A stretch of DNA of 64,000 nucleotides, taken from the NCBI GenBank assembly GCA_963719085.1, contig CAVRAL010000004.1:448001-512000 (forward strand), given 5' to 3'. The notes below the pieces were generated by a model. It was not told the DNA's origin, did no database searches, and was given only the letters and a program-made list of their open reading frames with translations. The stretch's first letter is position 1, and each line of letters starts with the position of its first letter. The stretch comes from a candidate division FCPU426 bacterium. Lineage in GTDB: Bacteria; Oederibacteriota; Muellerivitia; Muellerivitales; Muellerivitaceae. A program made the translations under genes and the position numbers. Below are positions 4,939-64,000 of the stretch, piece after piece.

Positions 4939-5547
4939 TTAGTGTTTTCCCTTGCCCCAAATGCCGTCCAGGTAGGAGTCCCGTCCGGAGGCCGCGTGGT
5001 ACATCTCGTAATGAACCGGATTCTTTTTGTAAAAGTCCTGGTGATAATCCTCGGCCGGGTAAAAATTAGTGAAGGCCTTCACCGGCGTCACGATGGGTTT
5101 GTCGTAAAGACCGGACTTGTCCAACACCGACTTGGATTGTTCCGCCTCCGCCTTTTGTTTGGGGTTTAGGGTAAAGATGACGGCCCGATATTGGGGTCCC
5201 CGGTCCACGAACTGGCCCTCGGCGTCCGTGGGATTAATCTGCTTCCAATAGACCCCCACGAGCTGTGAATAACTGATGGCGGCGGGATCGTAAAGAATTT
5301 CCACGGTTTCGGTAAAACCCCGGTCGGCGTAATCGTCATAGGTTGGATTTTCCCCTTGGCCGTCGGCGTACCCCGCGGTCACCTTAAGAACGCCCTTGAG
5401 TTTTTCAAAAGGCGGCGTCATGCACCAAAAGCATCCGCCGGCGAAATAGGCTTTCTGGGCCTTCACGGGAGCCGAATCTCCCCAAGCGAAAACCGCCGGG
5501 AACAAAGCTAAAACCAACCCCAAACACTTCAGCCAGGAACGCGTCAT
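4939..5547 (-). CDS. msrA: Peptide methionine sulfoxide reductase A, exported
   Basis: GGCFWC active site, FYPAEDYHQD motif, signal peptide. Confidence 0.95.
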   Translation of the reverse strand: MTRSWLKCLGLVLALFPAVFAWGDSAPVKAQKAYFAGGCFWCMTPPFEKLKGVLKVTAGYADGQGENPTYDDYADRGFTETVEILYDPAAISYSQLVGVYWKQINPTDAEGQFVDRGPQYRAVIFTLNPKQKAEAEQSKSVLDKSGLYDKPIVTPVKAFTNFYPAEDYHQDFYKKNPVHYEMYHAASGRDSYLDGIWGKGKH

Positions 5548-5608
5548 ATTTCCCTCCAAGGATTCGTCTGCCTTTATATACGAAGACTTTCAAAGAATAG
5601 TTGCCCCG

Positions 5609-5684
5609 CCAGCCTCGTTCCTCGGCAAAGCCGCGGGACGGCGCCACCAGCCTCGCTCCTCGGCATGGCCGCGGGACGGCGCCA
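5609..5684. repeat. 38-bp tandem duplication (2 copies) in divergent msrA/SDR intergenic region
   Basis: CCAGCCTCG(T/C)TCCTCGGCA(AA/TG)GCCGCGGGACGGCGCCA at 5609-5646 and 5647-5684. Confidence 0.85.
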
Positions 5685-5773
5685 CCCCTTTTAACTCCTG
5701 TTGGGTGGGGTGGCTTGCATTCCCCGGCGGATTTCCGGTTAATGAAAGCATCTTATCCCCACTGGAGAAAAAA

Positions 5774-6568
5774 ATGAAAATTGACCTGACCGGCAAAAAA
5801 GCGATTATCAGCGGCTCCACGGCCGGCATCGGGTTCGCCATCGCCAAAGGCTTGGCCCAATCCGGCGCCTCGGTTGTGGTGAACGGCCGCACCGCCAAAA
5901 GAGTCGAAGAAGCCTTGGGCGAAATAAAATCCCAAGTGCCCCTCGCCAAAGCCCATGGGCTGGCGGCGGACCTGGGAACGGCCGAGGGCGCGGCCAAGCT
6001 CCTCCAAGAATTTCCCGAAGCGGATATTCTGGTGAACAACCTGGGGATCTTTGAGGCCAAAGGTTTTTTTGAGATTCCGGATGAAGATTGGGAAAGGTTT
6101 TTCCGCGCCAACGTCCTCAGCGGCGTGCGGCTGTCACGGGCCTACACGCCCGGTATGGTGAAAAAGGGCTGGGGCCGGGTGGTTTTTATTTCCAGTGAGT
6201 CGGCCCTCCAAATTCCCGCCGAGATGGTTCATTACGGCATGACCAAGACCGCCCAATTGGCCGTCTCCCGTGGTTTGGCCGAAACGGTCGCCGGAACCGG
6301 CGTGACGGTCAACTGCGTGCTGCCAGGTCCCACCCGGTCCGAAGGCGTGGAGGGTTTTGTGGAAGCATTGGGCCGGCAATCGGGTAAGAGCCCGGAGGAA
6401 ATTGAGAAGGATTTCTTTAAAAACATGCGTCCCAGTTCACTGATCCAGCGTTTTGCCACCGTTGAGGAAGTGGCGAATTTGGTGGTTTATGTTTGCTCCC
6501 AACAAGCCTCCGCCACGACGGGCGCGGCCCTGCGGGTGGATGGAGGCGTGGTGCGGTTCATCGCTTGA
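5774..6568 (+). CDS. Short-chain dehydrogenase/reductase
   Basis: SGSTAGIG Rossmann motif, VNNLG, YGMTK catalytic motif. Confidence 0.93.
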   Translation: MKIDLTGKKAIISGSTAGIGFAIAKGLAQSGASVVVNGRTAKRVEEALGEIKSQVPLAKAHGLAADLGTAEGAAKLLQEFPEADILVNNLGIFEAKGFFEIPDEDWERFFRANVLSGVRLSRAYTPGMVKKGWGRVVFISSESALQIPAEMVHYGMTKTAQLAVSRGLAETVAGTGVTVNCVLPGPTRSEGVEGFVEALGRQSGKSPEEIEKDFFKNMRPSSLIQRFATVEEVANLVVYVCSQQASATTGAALRVDGGVVRFIA

Positions 6569-17154: not shown

Positions 17155-18306
17155 TTGATTAAAAAATTCCTGATTCTCCCACTGTTCTTGCTCTTAAGCG
17201 GCTGCGCCACGATGGCGGTAAATTTCACCCAAGCCACCTCGCCCAACTTTTGGGCCGTTGAAAACAGTTGTCAAACCCAGCTCGCCCAAATTCAAGCTTC
17301 CGTCCAAGCCAACGAGATTCCCTTTACCTTGGGCGACGGGCTCAAAACCAACGACGAGATCATCCGCAGGCTGAACCACCAGTACCGGGATAACTCGGCC
17401 GGTGCCGCCGACCTTTCCACCTCGCAGGCCGCTTTTTTGGAAAAACTTCTGAAGGACAACGACAGCTTTTTGGCCGACGCCTCGCAAAATCCCGACGATT
17501 GGTCCCAAGCCTTTTCAGGCCAGGACGACTATGTCCAATACCACCGCGCGCCGAACCAGGATTTCAGCGACCCGGTTCAACGGGGAATGTTCATTGTTTA
17601 TTTAAATATGCGCCTCAAGGAAGACGGGGACAAGGCCCTGGCCTTGGCGCAGTCAGGCCAATTGAGCGTCGATCAAGCCCAACAATTGCAGTCGAACCTG
17701 AACGATGTCCAGGGCAAGGCGGTTGAGGACTATTACGCGAACAACGCCTTGGATTTAACCGGCGATCAAATTTTTCAACTCCAGCGCATGCTGGCCGACA
17801 GCTATCAGGCGCTTAATACCGCCCCCACCCAGACTTATTACGGTGGCGGCTCTTTTTACAGCGCCCCGGCCAACAGCTGGGCCAACAACCCCGCGCCCGT
17901 GGCCAGCGGAAACAATTATTATCAATCCCCCGCCTCTTCCAGTTATTACCAGCCGCCCGCCCAAACCCAAAATAATCCCGCGCCTTCTGTGCCGACCGCC
18001 ACGCCCACCGCTTCCACCAATGGCGGCCGTGGATCCCCTGAGATCAATAACCGCCTGAATGTAAATCGCCCCGGCAATCCGCCTCCGCCGAATAATCCGA
18101 CCGCCACCGCGACCCCTGTTCCTGCGGTTCCCACCAATACGCCAGTGCCCGCGCCCGTCCCCGCGACGCCGACACCCACTCCCGGTTTCAACAATCGTTT
18201 AAATAGACATTTTCATTCTCGCGCGGAGAACCCATCCGCTCCCGCGACCCCCACTCCCGTTCCACCCGTAGCGCCGATTAACTCAACTCCCACTCCCGGC
18301 AGTTGA
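17155..18306 (+). CDS. Lipoprotein with Pro/Thr/Asn-rich C-terminus
   Basis: Lipobox LSGC; low-complexity tail. Confidence 0.7.
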   Translation: MIKKFLILPLFLLLSGCATMAVNFTQATSPNFWAVENSCQTQLAQIQASVQANEIPFTLGDGLKTNDEIIRRLNHQYRDNSAGAADLSTSQAAFLEKLLKDNDSFLADASQNPDDWSQAFSGQDDYVQYHRAPNQDFSDPVQRGMFIVYLNMRLKEDGDKALALAQSGQLSVDQAQQLQSNLNDVQGKAVEDYYANNALDLTGDQIFQLQRMLADSYQALNTAPTQTYYGGGSFYSAPANSWANNPAPVASGNNYYQSPASSSYYQPPAQTQNNPAPSVPTATPTASTNGGRGSPEINNRLNVNRPGNPPPPNNPTATATPVPAVPTNTPVPAPVPATPTPTPGFNNRLNRHFHSRAENPSAPATPTPVPPVAPINSTPTPGS

Positions 18307-18499: not shown

Positions 18500-18574
18500 T
18501 CCCCGGTAGCTCAATGGTGGAGCATGCGACTGTTAATCGCAGGGTTGTTGGTTCGAGTCCAACCCGGGGAGCCA
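18500..18574 (+). tRNA. tRNA-Asn (GTT)
   Basis: Acceptor TCCCCGG/CCGGGGA, anticodon arm TGCGA-CTGTTAA-TCGCA, GTTCGAGTCC T-arm, encoded CCA. Confidence 0.98.
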
Positions 18575-18576
18575 TA
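18530..18576 (+). repeat. att site, left (3' half of tRNA-Asn)
   Basis: CTGTTAATCGCAGGGTTGTTGGTTCGAGTCCAACCCGGGGAGCCATA identical to 50509-50555. Confidence 0.97.
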
Positions 18577-28416: not shown

Positions 28417-28448
28417 TTGACCCTGAAGTATACTCCAGCATTTATACT
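28417..28448 (+). promoter_or_regulatory. MerR-type promoter/operator (20-bp spacer)
   Basis: TTGACC 28417-28422, dyad CTGAAGTA/TACTCCAG 28423-28438, TATACT 28443-28448. Confidence 0.85.
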
Positions 28449-28465
28449 TTCCCCCGGAGTCGAAA

Positions 28466-28843
28466 ATGAAAATAAACGGATCGTTCTTACAAATCGGGCA
28501 AGTGTCCAAGCAAAGCGGGATGTCCATTGACACCATCCGGTATTACGAAAAGGAAGGCTTGCTGAAAAAACCGTCCCGAAGCGCGGGGGGATTCAGGCTT
28601 TACCCCAAGGAAGCCGTCGATCAATTGGTTTTCATCCGGAAGGCCCAGGGAATGGGCCTCACACTTGGCGAGATCAAGAAAATAACCTGTTGTGGGGACA
28701 AAGGGCTGGGGCCCTGTTGCGACCTGACCGTTGACCTGTTCACCAAGAAGATCAACGAGTTCGAGGCGAAGATTTCTGAAATTCAGGGGATGAAAAAGAA
28801 GTTAAAGACGGTTTTGGGCGGTTGGGTAAAAAACAAGAAGTAG
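28466..28843 (+). CDS. MerR-family metal-responsive regulator with two vicinal Cys pairs
   Basis: IGQVSKQSG..TIRYYE..GLL, GFRLY, FIRKAQGMGLTLGEIK; C75-C76 and C84-C85. Confidence 0.92.
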   Translation: MKINGSFLQIGQVSKQSGMSIDTIRYYEKEGLLKKPSRSAGGFRLYPKEAVDQLVFIRKAQGMGLTLGEIKKITCCGDKGLGPCCDLTVDLFTKKINEFEAKISEIQGMKKKLKTVLGGWVKNKK

Positions 28844-28854
28844 GGGGAATGGCT

Positions 28855-29268
28855 ATGCGGGCTCACTTGTCCATCGATGTTGAGAATGTCGAAAAATCGG
28901 TTGAATTTTACGAGAAGGTTTTTGGCGAAAAACCCCAAAAACAATCCGATCACTACGCCAAGTTCGACCTCAAGAATCCCGCCCTGAACTTCTCCATGCA
29001 AAGCCATGTAGGGCATCCCTCCAGCCGGGTAAACCATCTTGGCATAGAGGTTGATTCTCCCCAGGACTTGGCCAATTGGCAGGCAAGACTGCAAGCCCAA
29101 GGGCTTGTGAAAAGGGTGGAAACCCAAACATCCTGTTGTTTCGCGCGGCAGGATAAGCTTTGGTTCGAGGACCCGGATGGCAATGCCTGGGAAGTCTTCC
29201 ACGTCTATGAACAACTGCCCCTCCACGCTTCCGCCATGAAAGACAGCCAGTGTTGCCCCAAACCCTGA
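28855..29268 (+). CDS. arsI: ArsI/CadI-family VOC metalloenzyme (putative C-As lyase)
   Basis: HLSIDV, YAKF, NHLGIEV, CCFARQDK, DPDGNAWEVF. Confidence 0.85.
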   Translation: MRAHLSIDVENVEKSVEFYEKVFGEKPQKQSDHYAKFDLKNPALNFSMQSHVGHPSSRVNHLGIEVDSPQDLANWQARLQAQGLVKRVETQTSCCFARQDKLWFEDPDGNAWEVFHVYEQLPLHASAMKDSQCCPKP

Positions 29269-29942
29269 TTCTTTGGAAAAAATCTCTGGCCGAGGGCGTT
29301 GGGACCTTCACCCTCGTTTTCGCCGGATGTGGGGCCATCATGGTGGCCGAGAGGTATCCCGGAACCCTTTCACACGCTTCCATATCGATTGTCTTCGGCT
29401 TGGCGGTGGCCGTCATGATTTACGCCGTGGGCCATATCTCAGGGGCCCACTTTAATCCCGCCGTCACCCTAGCCTTCGCGGTCGCTAGGCACTTTCCCTT
29501 CCAGGAAGTCCTGGCTTATTGGACGGCCCAGCTCTTGGGCGGCTTGGCCGCGATCGGTGCCCTAAAGTTGATGCTCCCTCCCGGCCATTCTTACGGGGCG
29601 ACCGTCCCGACCGTGCCCCTCATACCGGCCTTGGCGTGGGAAATCATCCTGACTTTTTTCCTCATGTTCGTGATTGTGGCCGTGGCCACCGATACCCGGG
29701 CCGTGGGAACCATGGCCGGGGCGGCCATCGGGGGCACGGTCATGATGGCGGCTTGGGTTGGCGGGCCGATCACCGGTGCTTCCATGAATCCCGTCAGGTC
29801 GTTCGCCCCGGCGGTATTTGAGGGGCAGTTGGGAGTGATGTGGATTTACCTTTTGGGGCCTTGTCTGGGGGCGGTTCTAGCCGCATTGTTTTACGAGGCC
29901 ATCCGAATGACACCTGGCAACGGGAAAAACAATAAGGAGTAG
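29250..29942 (+). CDS. MIP-family aquaporin/aquaglyceroporin (putative arsenite channel)
   Basis: [10 protein letters not shown] and ASMNPVRS (NPA/NPV) motifs; within ars cluster. Confidence 0.92.
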
Positions 29943-29946
29943 GCTT

Positions 29947-30351
29947 GTGAAAAAGATTCTTTTCATGTGTGTGGCCAATTCGGGAAGAAGCCAAATGGCT
30001 GAAGGGATGGCCAAAAAGCTCTTTGGGGACCGAGCTTTAATCCAAAGCGCCGGTTCTAAGCCTTCCGTCGTAAATCCTTTCGCCATCAAGGCCATGGCTG
30101 AAATCGGCATTGATATCACGGGCCAACGGTCAAAATCAGTGGATGAGATAGATCCGTCCACGGTGGATACGGTCATTACACTTTGTGCCGAAGAAGTGTG
30201 CCCTGTTTTCCTCGGAAAAGCTGAACGCCTGCACTGGCCCCATACGGACCCTGGGCATGGCAAAACCACGGACGAGGAAAAACTCCAAAGCTTCCGGGAG
30301 GTAAGGGATCAAATCCAAAACAGGTTAAAGGTTTTTAAAGAGACGTTATAA
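29947..30351 (+). CDS. arsC: Arsenate reductase, LMW-PTP fold
   Basis: [14 protein letters not shown]-loop, [25 protein letters not shown]. Confidence 0.92.
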
Positions 30352-49075: not shown

Positions 49076-49339
49076 ATGACGGAACGCAGAAGGAGCGACC
49101 GCCGGACGTTGAATCAAGACTACCTTATGACGGATGACCAAGTGGCGCAGATGGCCGGGGTATCGGTGCATACGGTCCGCTATTGGAGACAGGTAGGGGT
49201 GTTGCCTTTTGTGAAGGTCGGGCGGCATCCCCGGTTCTGGTTTTCCGAGGTTCAAAAAGTTTTTAAAAGACCGCTTCCCTTTGGCATGGGGGGTGGGGAT
49301 AAAATAGAAGGCGCTGGGGACATTAGGAGGGTTTCATGA
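49076..49339 (+). CDS. Helix-turn-helix excisionase-like protein
   Basis: LMTDDQVAQMAGVSVHTVRYWRQVGVLPFVKVG; AGGAGG RBS; overlaps integrase start. Confidence 0.85.
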   Translation: MTERRRSDRRTLNQDYLMTDDQVAQMAGVSVHTVRYWRQVGVLPFVKVGRHPRFWFSEVQKVFKRPLPFGMGGGDKIEGAGDIRRVS

Positions 49340-50439
49340 GTAAACCTAATGTTCATGGATTGCCCAACCATCTTCGCAAGGATGGGAAGGGTTACTTCCT
49401 TGATTTTTTTATCAAGGAAGACGGGGTATCGAAGCGCAAAAGAGTCCGGTTGGGTGAGATCCCCTTGGCCCAGGCCAAGTTGATCCTGGCCCAAAACCAC
49501 AGGGCCATTTTGGAGCAGAAGTTTTTGGCTCCCGAAAAGCCGAAGGCCTTGTTCTTCAGCGCGGCGGAATCCTTCCTTGCCTATTCCAGGGCCAGGAAAA
49601 AAACCCACTACAGCGACGAGCTGACGGTGGGCCGGTTGAAGGCTTTCTTTGGGGACCGTACCCTGGACAGTTTTTCGCCGGATTTGGTCGAGGCCTACTT
49701 GGTGCATCGGAACCAGAGAAGCCAAGGCCGCCAGGGGAAGTTGAAGGGGGCGACCCTTAATCGGGACGTGGCTTGCTTGAGGACAATCCTGAGGCGGGCG
49801 CTTTTGAACCGGCAGATTGACCGCAATCCCATTGAGGGGGTCAAAAGGTTCAAGGAAGAATCCCGCAACCGCACCTTGGAGCCGGAGGAGTACCAGAAGC
49901 TTATCGCCAATTGCCCCAACCATATTCGGCCTATTATCCAGGTCGCCTATGTGACCGGCATGAGGCGCGGGGAAATCATGGGTCTTCGTTGGGATCAGGT
50001 GGACTTCAAGAACAAAGTGATTCTCTTGGAGGCCGACGATACCAAGACCCAGGAGAAACGGGAGATTCCGCTGGATAGTGAGTTGGCGGCGGTTCTTCAG
50101 CGCATCCCCAGGGTTTTGGGGTGCCCCAATGTGTTTACCTGGAAGGGTAAGCCCATCGAGAGTTGCAGGACGGGTTTCTATGACGCGAGGCGGAAGGCCG
50201 GGATCAAGGATTTCAGGTTCCACGACCTCAGGCATTGCGCCATCACCAACCTGAGAAAGGCCGGGGTAGGCGATTCGGTCATCATGTCGATTTCGGGCCA
50301 TAAGACCTATGCCATGTTCCGCAAGTACGACCGCGTGGACCGGCAGGACCGCCAAGCGGCGGTTCAAAGGGTCAGAAACCTGATTGACACGGAAATGACA
50401 CGGGCCGAAAATCCCGCCGAAAAAAGAATCAGCGGGTAG
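49336..50439 (+). CDS. int: Tyrosine recombinase/integrase
   Basis: TGMRRGE, KT, FHDLRH, SGHKT, Y catalytic residues; adjacent to att repeat. Confidence 0.97.
   Translation: MSKPNVHGLPNHLRKDGKGYFLDFFIKEDGVSKRKRVRLGEIPLAQAKLILAQNHRAILEQKFLAPEKPKALFFSAAESFLAYSRARKKTHYSDELTVGRLKAFFGDRTLDSFSPDLVEAYLVHRNQRSQGRQGKLKGATLNRDVACLRTILRRALLNRQIDRNPIEGVKRFKEESRNRTLEPEEYQKLIANCPNHIRPIIQVAYVTGMRRGEIMGLRWDQVDFKNKVILLEADDTKTQEKREIPLDSELAAVLQRIPRVLGCPNVFTWKGKPIESCRTGFYDARRKAGIKDFRFHDLRHCAITNLRKAGVGDSVIMSISGHKTYAMFRKYDRVDRQDRQAAVQRVRNLIDTEMTRAENPAEKRISG
50385..50403 (+). repeat. Putative integrase arm-type site (right)
   Basis: TGACACGGAAATGACACGG. Confidence 0.7.
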
Positions 50440-50508: not shown

Positions 50509-50555
50509 CTGTTAATCGCAGGGTTGTTGGTTCGAGTCCAACCCGGGGAGCCATA
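50509..50555 (+). repeat. att site, right (duplicated tRNA-Asn 3' half)
   Basis: 47-bp identity to 18530-18576; tRNA 5' half absent. Confidence 0.97.
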
Positions 50556-50796: not shown

Positions 50797-52002
50797 TCAG
50801 GGCGAAGACGCGTACCCATTGGCGTCATCCACCGCCACGAACAATCCGTTCCCATAGGCCACGCAAGACCAGTACTCCGTACTGGGGAGGTTTTGAGCGG
50901 TCCAATTGACGCCGTCGGGCGAATTCGCCGCGGTTGAACTGTTAAACGCGATCGCCACGAACTCCCCATTCCCGTAAGTCACCGAATCCCAGGGCAGTGA
51001 AGCGGGGAGGGTTTGGGAAGTCCAATTGACGCCGTCGGTGGACTCCGCGGCCGTCGAGCTGTCATAAGCAACCGCCGCGAAGACCCCGTTCCCGTAGGCC
51101 ACGGACCACCAGTCCTGCGCGCTGGGCATGGTTTGGGGGGTCCAAGTGACGCCGTCAGGCGAGGTCGCCGCCGTTGTTGAACCAGCGGCGATTGCCACGA
51201 ACTCCCCATTCCCGTAAGTCACCGAATGCCAGCCCTGTGAAACGGGGAGGCTTTGGGCGGTCCAAGTGATACCGTCCGGTGACGTCATGGCTTGATTGCC
51301 CGCGGAAGGGATCACCACAAATACTCCATTGCCGAAGGCCATGGACAGGGAGGAGCCGGGGAGGGTTTGGCCGGTCCAGGTACTGCCATCGGGTGAGGTC
51401 GCGTCCTCATAGTGATCTTGAGTGATCGCCACATAGACCCCATTCCCATAGGCGGCGGAAACCCAGGTCGCTGAGGTGGGCAGATTTTCAATGTTCCAGT
51501 AGGGTCCATTCTGAATCAGGAGCTGATCGCCATTTTGGGGAAGCACCAAAAGGGTGTTGTTGGCGTAGGCCACCGTTATCCACCCCAATATGTACATGGG
51601 GGGGAAGCGCTGAGCGGACCAGGACGACCCCGGCACGGGGGTCGTGGTCGGCGTATCCGTCGGAGTGAAGATGTCGGTCGGAGAATCGGTGATCGTCGGT
51701 GTCTGGCTGGGACTGTCGGTAAAGCTAGGCGTGGGGGTAACCGAAGGGGTGCCGGTCGAAGTCGGTGAAATGGTGGTCGAAGGCGTGATGGTGATCGTGG
51801 AGGTGGCGGTTTTGGTAGAGGTCGGTGTGGCTAAAACCGTGGGCGTGCCCGAAACGGTGCTGGAAGGGGTGGTATCGGGCGTAACCGAAGGGGTAGAGGT
51901 GATGGAGCCCTTGGGTTCGAAGGGCTGCTGCTTGGAACTGCAGGCTGTAAATAAAGAAGCGGTGAAGACCAGGAGCGCCAAAATAAAGACCGCGAGGTTC
52001 AT
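50797..52002 (-). CDS. Lipoprotein with Thr/Pro linker and ~40-aa BNR/propeller-like repeats
   Basis: FTAC lipobox; repeated W.SV.YGNG.FVA...SPDG..WT.Q.LP. Confidence 0.8.
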   Translation of the reverse strand: MNLAVFILALLVFTASLFTACSSKQQPFEPKGSITSTPSVTPDTTPSSTVSGTPTVLATPTSTKTATSTITITPSTTISPTSTGTPSVTPTPSFTDSPSQTPTITDSPTDIFTPTDTPTTTPVPGSSWSAQRFPPMYILGWITVAYANNTLLVLPQNGDQLLIQNGPYWNIENLPTSATWVSAAYGNGVYVAITQDHYEDATSPDGSTWTGQTLPGSSLSMAFGNGVFVVIPSAGNQAMTSPDGITWTAQSLPVSQGWHSVTYGNGEFVAIAAGSTTAATSPDGVTWTPQTMPSAQDWWSVAYGNGVFAAVAYDSSTAAESTDGVNWTSQTLPASLPWDSVTYGNGEFVAIAFNSSTAANSPDGVNWTAQNLPSTEYWSCVAYGNGLFVAVDDANGYASSP

Positions 52003-58759: not shown

Positions 58760-61084
58760 CTAGGAAAATGGCAGGTATTGATCCAGCGCCCGCTCGCCCA
58801 CGCCTTTGGCCCCCAGGGTATTGAGTTTGCCCCCCGGGCCATGGAAAAAGCCTTCCAGATCGGCGTGGACCCCATAGTCGAATAAGGCCTCCGGGCCGAT
58901 GGCGTCGCGCTTGAACAAACCCTTTTCCACCATATGAATGTACTGCTCGATGTCGGTGATAATTTCCACCCGATAGGTGTTGTCGCTGTTGGCCCGAATC
59001 ACTTTTAAATTATAGAGATGCTCGTTTTCGGCATTTTGCGGCAATACCACCCACTCGGGCACCCGGTTTTCCTCGATCAGCGCCCGCTTCAGCGCGGCCC
59101 CTTGCAGTTTGGCCAGCTTGTCCGTTTCGGCTTGGTCCAAGATAAGCACATAGGACAGCGTGTATTTGGCGTCGGGCGAAGTGACATCCTGAACCATAAA
59201 CCGATCCACCAGGTTGTCCCGGGCCGCGTTGCGGGAGGCCAGCGGAAACTTGATGTGCTTGTCCACCACGATTTTAGGATTCAGGCCCCTTAACTGCTTG
59301 GCTTGCCGGGCGCCGAGCCGGGACAAGGCGTCATCGGGGGCGATGCCCCGGTCGATGAGCTGTTTTCGCCGCTCCGGGTCATGGACAAAAAGCGGGGCCT
59401 GGGCCGCCAGCACCGAAACGTGATAGCCCTTTTCCTTGAAAGCTCTCGTGATCTTGTCGTTGCGGCCCTCGTAAGGGATGCCCGAGCCGTCGATATAAAG
59501 ATTGTGCCCGCCTTCCAGCGCCCGCGAGGTGATCAAATCCCGGACGGCGTTGCCGAACTGTTCGGCGGATTTGTAGTCGTCGTTGTGGTTGTTGGTGGCC
59601 GGATAAAGCCAATAGCGCTCACACTCGCTTCGGGCGTCATCCAGCGACGCCACCACCAGCGACCGGCCCTTGTTGCATTCCCGGTCCGCTATTTTTTTCA
59701 GGCCGCTTTTGCCTGAGGCCGAGCCCCCCATGGTCATATACATCCGTTTTTCACCCGCCGGGAGTATGTCCAAGACGAACTGCTGATCGGCGACCTCATC
59801 CACCCGGGGCAGCATGGCTTCCAGGTGGGTTCGCGCGATCGCGACGATCTTTTCGAGCGCCGGATCCTTTTGGGCCGACGCGGCCTTGCCGAGCTTCCCC
59901 ATCATTTGACGGACATGATTTTTCAGTTCCTCGCGTTTGAGTTCCCTCGTCTTCTCATTCGCCCGTCCCCGGCTCAGCGTGGTGAAATGGACGGGCACTA
60001 GGTCGGCGAAGCTCTCCACCCCGATCACCTCGGCCATCAAAACCTTTAAGCGGGCCAATTCACTTTGGGTTTGTCCGGGCAGGGCTTTTAAGGCAAGCCC
60101 GGTTAAGAAATCAACGTCCATGCAAAGAAGCCGGACTTGTCCCTTTTCATCCCTCGCCGGCAGTCCGTCCACGCTGGGGTTTTCCGACATGCTTTTAATT
60201 TTCGCCTTCACCGTGGCCCGAAGGTTTTGCTCGTCTTGGCTGGGAGCGAACCCTTCCACAAAATCACTTAAGGGCCGGGCTTGATCCAGTCCCACCCTCA
60301 ATTCGTCCATGGGCCGCGCCGAGGCCACGTGTTGCTCGATTTGTTTTTTTAAATCCTCCGTCAGGTCGACCAAGTGGCCGGTTTGGGTCACCAAATGCGT
60401 GCGCCATTGATTCACGGTTTTGGCGGCGAAGCGGAGCCCCGCGATCTCCACGTTGGATTCGGGCGGGTTGATGAACTGACTGCTGGAGGGGAAATGGCCG
60501 GGGCCGAAAAAGGCGGCGTTAAAACGGGCCTCGAGAAACTTGGCGGGCTCCTTTTCGAGGATCGGCTCGCCCCGGGTGAAATCGATCCCGCTGGGGAAAA
60601 GTTTCCGCCATTTCACGCCCAGGCCCATCTCCACGAACAGCGCGCCGCAGGCCAGGCTGGAGTTGTGCAATGGCACCTTATCCCGAAGATGCTCATAGAG
60701 CGTTTTAAGCGCTTCCGGGCCGTCCTCGGGCGAAAGGATCAACTGGCCCTGCTCGCCGTAGTTTTTTTGAACGAATTTGCGGAAGATGTCCCGCAGTTTG
60801 GTGCGGTTCTCATCGGTCATGTCGCGGGTATTGCAAAACTTGCCGCCGACCACTTTATGATGCTGGGAAGAATCCTCAAAGGCGTAATCGTAGATCCGGG
60901 TGAAGGCGGTGGCCAGATTCTCCGCCACCTCCTCACGCCCGCGGCCCCGGTCCGGGTCCGCCACGCTGACTTCCCGCGCGCCTTGGGCGTCCGTCAGCAT
61001 GACGACTTGGCAACGGTAGACGAATTCCAGCCGGACGGCGGCTTCGGTAGCGACCAGTTGGTCAAAGGGCGAGAGTGGGGCCAT
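58760..61084 (-). CDS. Large zeta-toxin-like P-loop kinase protein
   Basis: MTMGGSASGKS Walker A, SLDDAR, NLYIDGSG, FKEKGYHVSV; ~440-aa N-terminal extension. Confidence 0.7.
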   Translation of the reverse strand: MAPLSPFDQLVATEAAVRLEFVYRCQVVMLTDAQGAREVSVADPDRGRGREEVAENLATAFTRIYDYAFEDSSQHHKVVGGKFCNTRDMTDENRTKLRDIFRKFVQKNYGEQGQLILSPEDGPEALKTLYEHLRDKVPLHNSSLACGALFVEMGLGVKWRKLFPSGIDFTRGEPILEKEPAKFLEARFNAAFFGPGHFPSSSQFINPPESNVEIAGLRFAAKTVNQWRTHLVTQTGHLVDLTEDLKKQIEQHVASARPMDELRVGLDQARPLSDFVEGFAPSQDEQNLRATVKAKIKSMSENPSVDGLPARDEKGQVRLLCMDVDFLTGLALKALPGQTQSELARLKVLMAEVIGVESFADLVPVHFTTLSRGRANEKTRELKREELKNHVRQMMGKLGKAASAQKDPALEKIVAIARTHLEAMLPRVDEVADQQFVLDILPAGEKRMYMTMGGSASGKSGLKKIADRECNKGRSLVVASLDDARSECERYWLYPATNNHNDDYKSAEQFGNAVRDLITSRALEGGHNLYIDGSGIPYEGRNDKITRAFKEKGYHVSVLAAQAPLFVHDPERRKQLIDRGIAPDDALSRLGARQAKQLRGLNPKIVVDKHIKFPLASRNAARDNLVDRFMVQDVTSPDAKYTLSYVLILDQAETDKLAKLQGAALKRALIEENRVPEWVVLPQNAENEHLYNLKVIRANSDNTYRVEIITDIEQYIHMVEKGLFKRDAIGPEALFDYGVHADLEGFFHGPGGKLNTLGAKGVGERALDQYLPFS

Positions 61085-62963: not shown

Positions 62964-64000
62964 ATGCGGCCCATGCCATTCAAACTTTCAATCAGCCTCA
63001 AGCCGGCGTTCTTTTGCTTGGCTTTGCTTTGGCCCGCCGTCGGTTCGGCCCAATCCAACTATACCGTCGGTGAAACGGTGAGTTTCGTTATCACCGCGAT
63101 CAACAGCACCGGATCCAATTGGACCAATGTCACCATCGTGGACACCCTTCCCGCCAACCTGACTTATGTTTCCTGCTCGGGGGTGAGCACCTGTGGTTTG
63201 GTGGGGTCCGCCGTACACTGGCCCTTTCCCGTACTGGTGAATGGGTCGACCACCTCGGTCACTTTTATGGCCACGATCAATTCCTGCGTCCCCAACACTT
63301 ACGTGGAAAAAGCCTCGGTGGATGTGGGCTCCCCAATGGAGCAGCTTTTCACCAACGCGGTGACCGACACGATCGCCTGCCTGACCAACACGCCGACCAA
63401 TACGCCCACCCGCACCAATACGCCCACGGTCACCTGGACCGCCACCACGACGCCAACCTCAACCGTCACCCGAACAGCGACCGCCACTTTGACGCCCACT
63501 TGGTCCCCGACCTGGACCTCTAGTTTCACGCCGACCTTGACCTTTACGCCGACCTATTCTCCCACGATCACCAATACCCCCACCGCTTCCGGAACACCCA
63601 CCCCGACCCGCACTTGGACTTTATCCCCGACGCTGACGCCGACCCCCACGCCGACCTTGTCCCCGACCGAAACCCTGTCGCCGACCATGACATCGTCCCC
63701 CACCGTGACCTCCAGTTTTACGGTCACGTCCACCCCCACCGCTTCACCCACGGTGACCCTGACGCCGTCGGCCACCTTCAGCCCGACCCCCACCGAAACC
63801 GCCACTTGGACTCAAACCCGGACGCCCACCTCGACACCGACCGAAACCGCGACTCGGACCCCCACGAAGACGCCCACCGACACCTTAACCGCCACCCCGA
63901 GTTTCACGAGAACCTTCACGCCGACTGAAACCATGACGCCGACCATCACCTCCACGCCGACGATTACCTCGACCCCCACCGAAACCGCGACGCCCGGACC
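62964..64000 (+). CDS. Exported DUF11-like domain protein with long Thr/Pro repeat (runs off window)
   Basis: Frame open from ATG 62964 to the window end: signal peptide, [15 protein letters not shown], then TPT repeats; absent from ORF track for lack of a stop. Confidence 0.8.

Follow-up and report, generated by a model that had tools for sequence, protein, structure and literature searches.

What switches on an arsenic-resistance operon whose first gene encodes a member of the MerR family in place of an ArsR/SmtB repressor? The question arises from a stretch of bacterial DNA of 64,000 nucleotides (here called the window), for which it had been proposed, in what we call the original prediction, that merR, arsI, an aquaporin gene and arsC are tightly coupled behind a MerR-type promoter consisting of TTGACC, a 20-bp spacer and TATACT. 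The coordinates and the gaps between the genes match that description, as follows:

28417 to 28448, forward strand: merR-type promoter, with the -35 element TTGACC (28417-28422), the 20-bp spacer (28423-28442) and the -10 element TATACT (28443-28448)
28423 to 28438, no strand: operator dyad CTGAAGTA/TACTCCAG inside the spacer (8+8, 7/8 pairs), the predicted MerR dimer site
28466 to 28843, forward strand: merR, gene of a short MerR-family regulator of 125 aa without the C-terminal metal-binding loop
28688 to 28720, forward strand: codons of C75-C76-x7-C84-C85, which flank the helix 4/helix 5 hinge; the predicted As(III) site is C76, C84 and C85
28855 to 29268, forward strand: arsI, ArsI/CadI-family VOC enzyme (NF041414, 142.9 bits, cut-off 116)
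29250 to 29942, forward strand: MIP/aquaglyceroporin channel (PF00230, 187 bits)
29947 to 30351, forward strand: arsC, LMWP-fold, arsenate reductase-like (PF01451; C8-x5-R14, C80, C85)

The merR start lies 17 bases beyond the TATACT element, 11 nt separate merR from arsI, the arsI and channel genes overlap by 19 nt, and 4 nt lie between the channel gene and arsC. We call this an ars operon on the basis of an arsenate reductase-like protein of the LMWPc family (C-x5-R plus two further cysteines) accompanied by a MIP channel; the NCBIfam model nearest to the arsC product, TIGR02691, scores 123 bits, under its cut-off of 174. The arsI product has His4, His61, Cys94-Cys95 and Glu113, and shares its Cys pair with its best matches among solved structures, 5d4f/5c4p, which we take to be an ArsI. 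The MIP channel is likely the exit route for As(III), and its three top plasmid relatives examined are all located inside or next to ars clusters that include an ArsR gene. No gene in the window matches the ArsR family, in agreement with the original reading that the surrounding island has no ArsR/SmtB gene.

A weight matrix built from 45 other loci was used to search the whole genome (3.04 Mb) for the promoter and gave two sites, at 50.1 and 39.5 bits, the next best reaching 10.0 and the 50.1-bit site scoring on the reverse strand as well. Because these two sites lie directly before the two merR copies of the genome, the operon promoter is not a chance match. A scan for sigma-70 promoters with spacers of 16–18 nt gave no match at the operon promoter, since a 20-bp spacer falls outside its range. 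The dyad columns of the operator are kept across loci, and the 20-bp-spacer layout is found upstream of all 68 listed distinct loci of the short and long forms compared below. The likeness to the E. coli zntA promoter that had been pointed out is borne out, with 24 of 32 positions identical by hand count, and E. coli ZntR would probably recognise the window operator because it is so nearly that of zntA. This likeness does not carry over to the ligand, since 112 of 127 canonical MerR controls have the same zntA-like promoter; it indicates mechanism, and we rejected it as evidence for arsenic. Judged from the sequences compared, the zntA-like promoter and the merR-first layout are ancestral and common to mer/cop-type relatives, and the layout supports self-regulation by what would be the twisting mechanism of MerR proteins.

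The other merR copy (G000:C4:333611-333982) is 82% identical to that of the window and belongs to a paralogous merR-aqp-arsC operon (locus L001, 6484-7998; G000:C4:332483-333997), flanked by polA-like and tatA-like genes that were labelled from sequence reading. Its promoter has a perfect operator dyad and is identical to that of E. coli zntA at 27 of 32 positions (hand count), and both MerR copies probably bind both promoters.

The regulator and its cysteines

The window regulator scores above the cut-offs of the MerR Pfam families PF13411, PF00376 and PF09278, and profile searches gave no match to PF01022 or NF033788 (ArsR/SmtB). Its scores against the NCBIfam equivalogs for Hg-MerR, CadR-PbrR, CueR and ZntR range from 76 to 85 bits, below cut-offs of 143 to 168; it thus lies far under the thresholds that define MerR, CadR-PbrR and CueR, and even its highest score, the 85 bits for ZntR, falls short of the 143 required. 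On these profile scores it is a member of the MerR family outside every named metal-sensing subfamily. Its predicted fold, with a winged HTH at the N-terminus and a long helix 5, is that of the metal-sensing MerRs CadR (6jgx), PbrR (5gpe) and CueR, with CadR giving the top Foldseek matches, and its best sequence match among solved structures is the Bacillus MerR 4ua1 (E 3.7e-18).

The only cysteines in the chain are 75, 76, 84 and 85. The chain ends five residues past W120, a nearly invariant residue that adjoins the site where canonical relatives have their first loop cysteine. The absence of the C-terminal Cys loop, described in the original prediction, extends to other short homologs, 104 of 107 listed having no cysteine after the PCC motif. 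The two vicinal pairs that it described fared differently. C76, C84 and C85 are present in 120/120 homologs (the best 120 of 209), whereas C75 is optional, being present in 81 of those 120 and in 23 of the 37 listed short-form loci, so that the expected conservation of CC-x7-CC holds for C-x7-CC and fails for the first cysteine of the CC. All 37 listed distinct short-form loci, all sources pooled, have C-x7-CC. This conservation may be overstated because the homolog search depends on exact words in common and the Cys motif was one of the two seeds of the locus scans; genome searches without motif seeding gave the same C-x7-CC conservation. The idea that the conserved site consists of two vicinal pairs was therefore dropped; as far as these alignments indicate, the conserved unit is one cysteine plus one vicinal pair (C76-x7-C84-C85).

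In the structure model a helix spanning residues 67–76 is followed by a loop and a second helix spanning 86–124, so that helix 4 ends with C76, and C84/C85 immediately precede helix 5. Within the inner part of the model, confidence is lowest at the hinge loop (pLDDT 67–69). In the alignment, C84/C85 correspond to the helix-5 cysteine of Bacillus MerR. The Hg(II)-responsive Bacillus megaterium protein (PDB 4ua1; described in part in PMC4551924) is like the window MerR in its fold, in its cysteine at the start of helix 5 and in its long-spacer promoter. Unlike it, the window MerR has no counterparts of loop cysteines 114 and 123, since Trp120 adjoins the place of the former and the chain stops short of that of the latter, and has in addition Cys76, the vicinal Cys84-Cys85 and ars neighbours. 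When 1.84 billion representatives were searched by a method that needs no shared words, 13 matches at E up to 1e-30 were obtained, of which two are short forms, most others are long or truncated, and two are unrelated tandem MerRs; with two short forms among so many sequences, the clade is narrow.

Neighbourhoods, descent and alternation with ArsR

Loci were collected from scans of genome and metagenome contigs (best 80 each) and from two phylum searches. Once identical proteins and two loci with less than 300 bp downstream (L122 and L213) had been dropped, 37 distinct short-form loci remained, one of them (L098) with a frameshifted merR. In all 37 listed an ars gene is the first one recognised downstream, which is the linkage that a comparison of homologous neighbourhoods had been expected to reveal. 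The cargo listed for these 37 loci comprises arsC in 35, an aquaporin in 21, acr3 in 12, arsI in 11 and arsM in 6, arranged in 16 gene-order strings of which five are partial strings of one or two genes, and the arsM and acr3 calls in relatives are above NCBIfam cut-offs. The long-form relatives, in which the C-terminal CPxI cysteine is kept, have none of the five ars genes downstream in any of the 29 listed, many of these loci being readable for only about 1.4 kb downstream; they adjoin merT-HMA, merC, GDCCVxC, CopZ-like and YHS/ICMT genes. The nearest to exceptions are L223, where a gene of the ArsR family lies some 960 bp downstream, and L208, with a weak methyltransferase match upstream. 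An ars gene adjoins none of 114 canonical controls (duplicates retained, each with 400 bp or more downstream); four of them have a match within -2.5 to +2 kb. One genome, G103, carries both forms 23 kb apart, the short at acr3-arsC and the long at thioredoxin-like/merC/GDCCVxC genes.

The three cysteines are not confined to the short forms. All 13 listed long homologs, which lie at mer/cop-type genes, also have C76, C84 and C85; the triad alone therefore does not specify arsenic, and selectivity must also hinge on loss of the tail. A tree was built from 58 of 88 rows, after long branches and close copies had been taken out and the alignment stripped of the Cys columns and the tail; in it the 26 short rows fall into a single group (98/88). 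Given this single origin, the ars linkage in 37 of 37 loci does not represent 37 independent events; it has one origin and has been kept through many rearrangements and with two unrelated exporters. None of 200 bootstrap trees contained a single long-form group, favouring nesting of the short forms within the long, but an AU test did not reject a tree with short and long forms as sister groups (p 0.41), which leaves nesting as a candidate order of events. Putative intermediates are extant, with either CC or C-x7-CC alongside the tail cysteine. The short clade was not found in 351 genomes of Nitrospirota, the phylum of L027 (23 matches, all without the motif), nor in plasmid records, where the best match was 44% identical; the five plasmid MerR relatives examined all lie beside copper/heavy-metal ATPase genes.

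Several other features of these loci were observed. Genes following the long forms (L010 6426-6596, L013 6426-6596 and others) encode a conserved protein of 57–62 aa with the motif CPxCGxCP, possibly an undescribed metal-binding partner; the one copy scanned had no Pfam or NCBIfam match. In L226, L227 and L234, long forms with CC plus the tail cysteine lead YHS/HMBD genes and ICMT-like ones, which are typical of copper clusters, and for this reason the long forms may not all sense mercury. The same zntA-like promoter precedes operons that are headed by acidobacterial three-Cys MerRs (L015-L081 and related metagenome loci); there the next genes are often one for a thioredoxin-like protein (the single one scanned being of the DF family) and merT-like ones. 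In L242 (3535-5180) aqp-arsC has no upstream regulator and is followed by a canonical-type MerR. In L098 (1604-2043) the short merR is split by the frameshift, which may be an assembly error, and the promoter and arsC-aqp are intact.

It is informative to compare the regulators used within the family to which the host belongs. Of 31 genomes, all of which have arsC, 22 carry the short MerR and 6 carry a CVC-type ArsR (C-V-C in helix 3); no genome has both, and all six with ArsR are among the nine without the MerR. The probability of such exclusion by chance would be 1.1e-4 if the genomes were independent, which they are not. In G051, G052, G053 and G057 the CVC-type ArsR directly heads arsM/arsC/acr3 genes, and those of G051 are 69–91% identical to the MerR-led genes of L002, L190, L191 and L198. 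At these four ArsR-led loci the MerR site is missing and a 16-bp dyad of another kind is present, while the ArsR-type dyad is present in 0/38 listed short loci; from these sites it appears that each regulator comes with an operator of its own. The ArsR and arsC matches of G061 and G064 are on different contigs, and in G058, G059 and G071 ars genes are present with neither regulator found. One short locus, L008, has an ArsR-family gene 690 bp upstream of merR on the same strand; this Cys-rich gene, with CC and CEC motifs, lies together with a 58-aa Cys-rich ORF at 5300-5865, upstream of merR-acr3-arsC. The host genome has four PF01022 matches, all outside the window and none beside an ars gene, and no match to the ArsR-type dyad of the family within two mismatches; trans control of the operon by one of these four proteins accordingly found no support as a candidate explanation. 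This is a real and conserved system in which a MerR subfamily likely stands in for ArsR, and the alternation of the two before closely related ars genes in one family agrees with the original reading of a MerR in the place of ArsR.

A proposed arsenite switch and its rivals

We consider it probable, on comparative sequence evidence, that the short MerR is an autoregulated activator of the ars operon that is triggered by arsenite (and antimonite) and replaces ArsR. In the steps that we envisage, the MerR dimer would sit on the dyad that lies between the -35 element and the -10 element and keep its own operon nearly silent. As(III) would be produced from arsenate by ArsC and set free from methylarsenite by ArsI. 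It would then be bound by three thiolates, probably all of the same subunit: that of C76, where helix 4 ends, and those of C84/C85, where helix 5 begins. Clamping of the hinge would shift the DNA-binding heads, untwist the 20-bp spacer and turn on merR-arsI-aqp-arsC, and As(III) would leave by the channel (Acr3 in relatives). The ligand, the activation and the geometry of the site are all predicted here from sequence and models. They have parallels in systems that are better characterized: MerR proteins remain on long-spacer promoters and activate by underwinding them (PMC11672702, section 3.2.3), and Cys79 of Bacillus MerR, at the equivalent position, is described in a portion of PMC4551924 as lying in a flexible H4-H5 loop that becomes helical on metal binding. 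Likewise, the As(III) sites consist of three cysteines in AfArsR (CCx5C; PMC11672702, section 3.2.2.3) and of C36/C37/C157 in MarRars (as given in part of bioRxiv 2021.08.12.456183). A broader, evolutionary reading is one toward which we lean: this would be the first metalloid-sensing MerR, descended from a mer/cop-type ancestor in which the site moved from the inter-subunit loop to an intra-subunit three-Cys hinge clamp, after which the tail was lost and the protein traded places with ArsR.

The alternative with the most in its favour, though an unlikely one, is a broad sensor of soft metals or thiol stress (Hg, Cd, Cu or oxidation, in the manner of NmlR), with the ars genes answering a general signal. 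The same C-x7-CC does occur in long-form relatives at merT/merC/HMA genes, ZntR selectivity is called modest in a section of PMC11672702, and NmlR, which has no sensor region, relies on Cys54 and on a helix 4 cysteine close to the hinge, Cys71 (PMC5001606). However, among the short loci listed, none of the downstream genes identified belongs to a family for metal transport or redox repair, and the non-ars extras seen there are a C-GCAxxG-C-C protein and an ArsP-family permease; in addition, the short MerR alternates with a CVC-type ArsR and has no cysteine near position 54–58. The available description of NmlR/AdhR (PMC5001606) shares with the window MerR the missing C-terminal sensor and a helix 4 cysteine near the hinge. 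Unlike those proteins, the window MerR is without Cys54, has its operator between -35 and -10, where that of NmlR/AdhR flanks -35, scores 48 bits against a cut-off of 175 for the NmlR/AdhR profile and has no aldehyde-detoxification genes among the neighbours listed.

We give little credence to an arsenic-sensing repressor that loosens from DNA, or to weak constitutive expression, with allosteric activation having been lost along with the C-terminal loop. According to passages of PMC11672702 and PMC5001606, canonical activation uses contacts of this loop with the DNA-binding domain of the partner subunit, and the loop is missing here. Against this stand the 20-bp spacer, retained in 68 of 68 listed loci, and the account in part of PMC4551924 that such promoters are poor without twisting, so that simple release would yield little expression; moreover, NmlR activates without a sensor region (PMC5001606, in part).

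An arsenite-triggered activator is also preferred to a sensor mainly of methylarsenite or other organoarsenicals acting through the vicinal Cys pair, the least probable of the three, for although arsI directly follows merR in the window and C75 is present in 11/11 arsI-bearing loci against 9/21 without arsI (raw Fisher p 0.002), this co-occurrence is not significant once kinship is considered (3 independent pairs, sign test p ~0.5), the three cysteines are invariant, and arsI is found in 11 of the 37 listed loci, the constant parts being arsC and a channel or Acr3. Methylarsenite, which the original prediction had put beside As(III), is thus probably not the main signal (arsI in 11/37 versus arsC in 35/37 listed loci), and because arsC and an exporter are the constant cargo, inorganic As(III) is the likelier one.

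How does such a protein compare with known regulators? With E. coli ZntR/zntA it shares the 20-bp spacer and nearly the same dyad; unlike ZntR, whose CCx3Hx4C loop is described in part of PMC11672702, it has no such loop, heads its own operon and has ars targets. With ArsR repressors (AfArsR CCx5C, CgArsR and canonical C-V/A-C) and Achromobacter MarRars (C36, C37, C157) it shares its place at the head of an ars operon and a three-Cys set with a vicinal pair, and MarRars is a precedent for a family other than ArsR taking over ars control (bioRxiv 2021.08.12.456183, in part). It differs from both in fold family, and those repressors leave DNA, whereas the layout of the window promoter points to activation by twisting. 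The papers cited here describe repressors as the regulators of ars operons (ArsR, PMC11672702; MarRars, bioRxiv 2021.08.12.456183). Full-text literature searches, with most subscription journals outside their coverage, returned no arsenic-sensing MerR, and a mention in print is possible. Section 3.2.3 of a 2024 review (PMC11672702) includes neither arsenic nor antimony in its list of MerR inducers, the available text of PMC9909328 does not contain 'arsen', and that of PMC6741143 (Slr0701) leaves arsenic unmentioned. If our reading is correct, an As(III)-switched MerR would add a metalloid to the signals of the family and show that allostery can take a new route, by way of the hinge, and the long and short forms would provide a natural series for examining how sensing of the Hg/Cu type becomes As sensing. 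One can also imagine applications, as a 125-aa protein with a 32-bp promoter of sigma-70 type lends itself to direct trial in E. coli and could yield a low-background, activator-based arsenic biosensor.

The island around the operon

The operon lies within an island, which is delimited as follows:

18530 to 50555, no strand: tRNA-Asn island of 32 kb with the operon inside, bounded by 47-bp direct repeats (18530-18576 and 50509-50555)

The repeats correspond to the 3′ end of tRNA-Asn, and an integrase-like ORF, a label that comes from sequence reading rather than a family scan, is present at 49336-50439. Other genes of the island encode a chromate transporter, two P-type ATPases (one of them of the heavy-metal type), a PAP2 phosphatase and a Fic-domain protein. 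A second integrase-like ORF (G000:C4:254362-255582), with an N-terminus closely like that of the first, suggests a related island elsewhere in the genome. Elsewhere in the window, probably secreted proteins with Pro/Thr-rich repeats are encoded at 17155-18306, 50797-52002 and 63001-64000, and an ORF of 774 aa (58760-61084) has the P-loop GGSASGKS in its C-terminal half and presumably resembles a zeta-type kinase. GC skew is strong at the end of the window.
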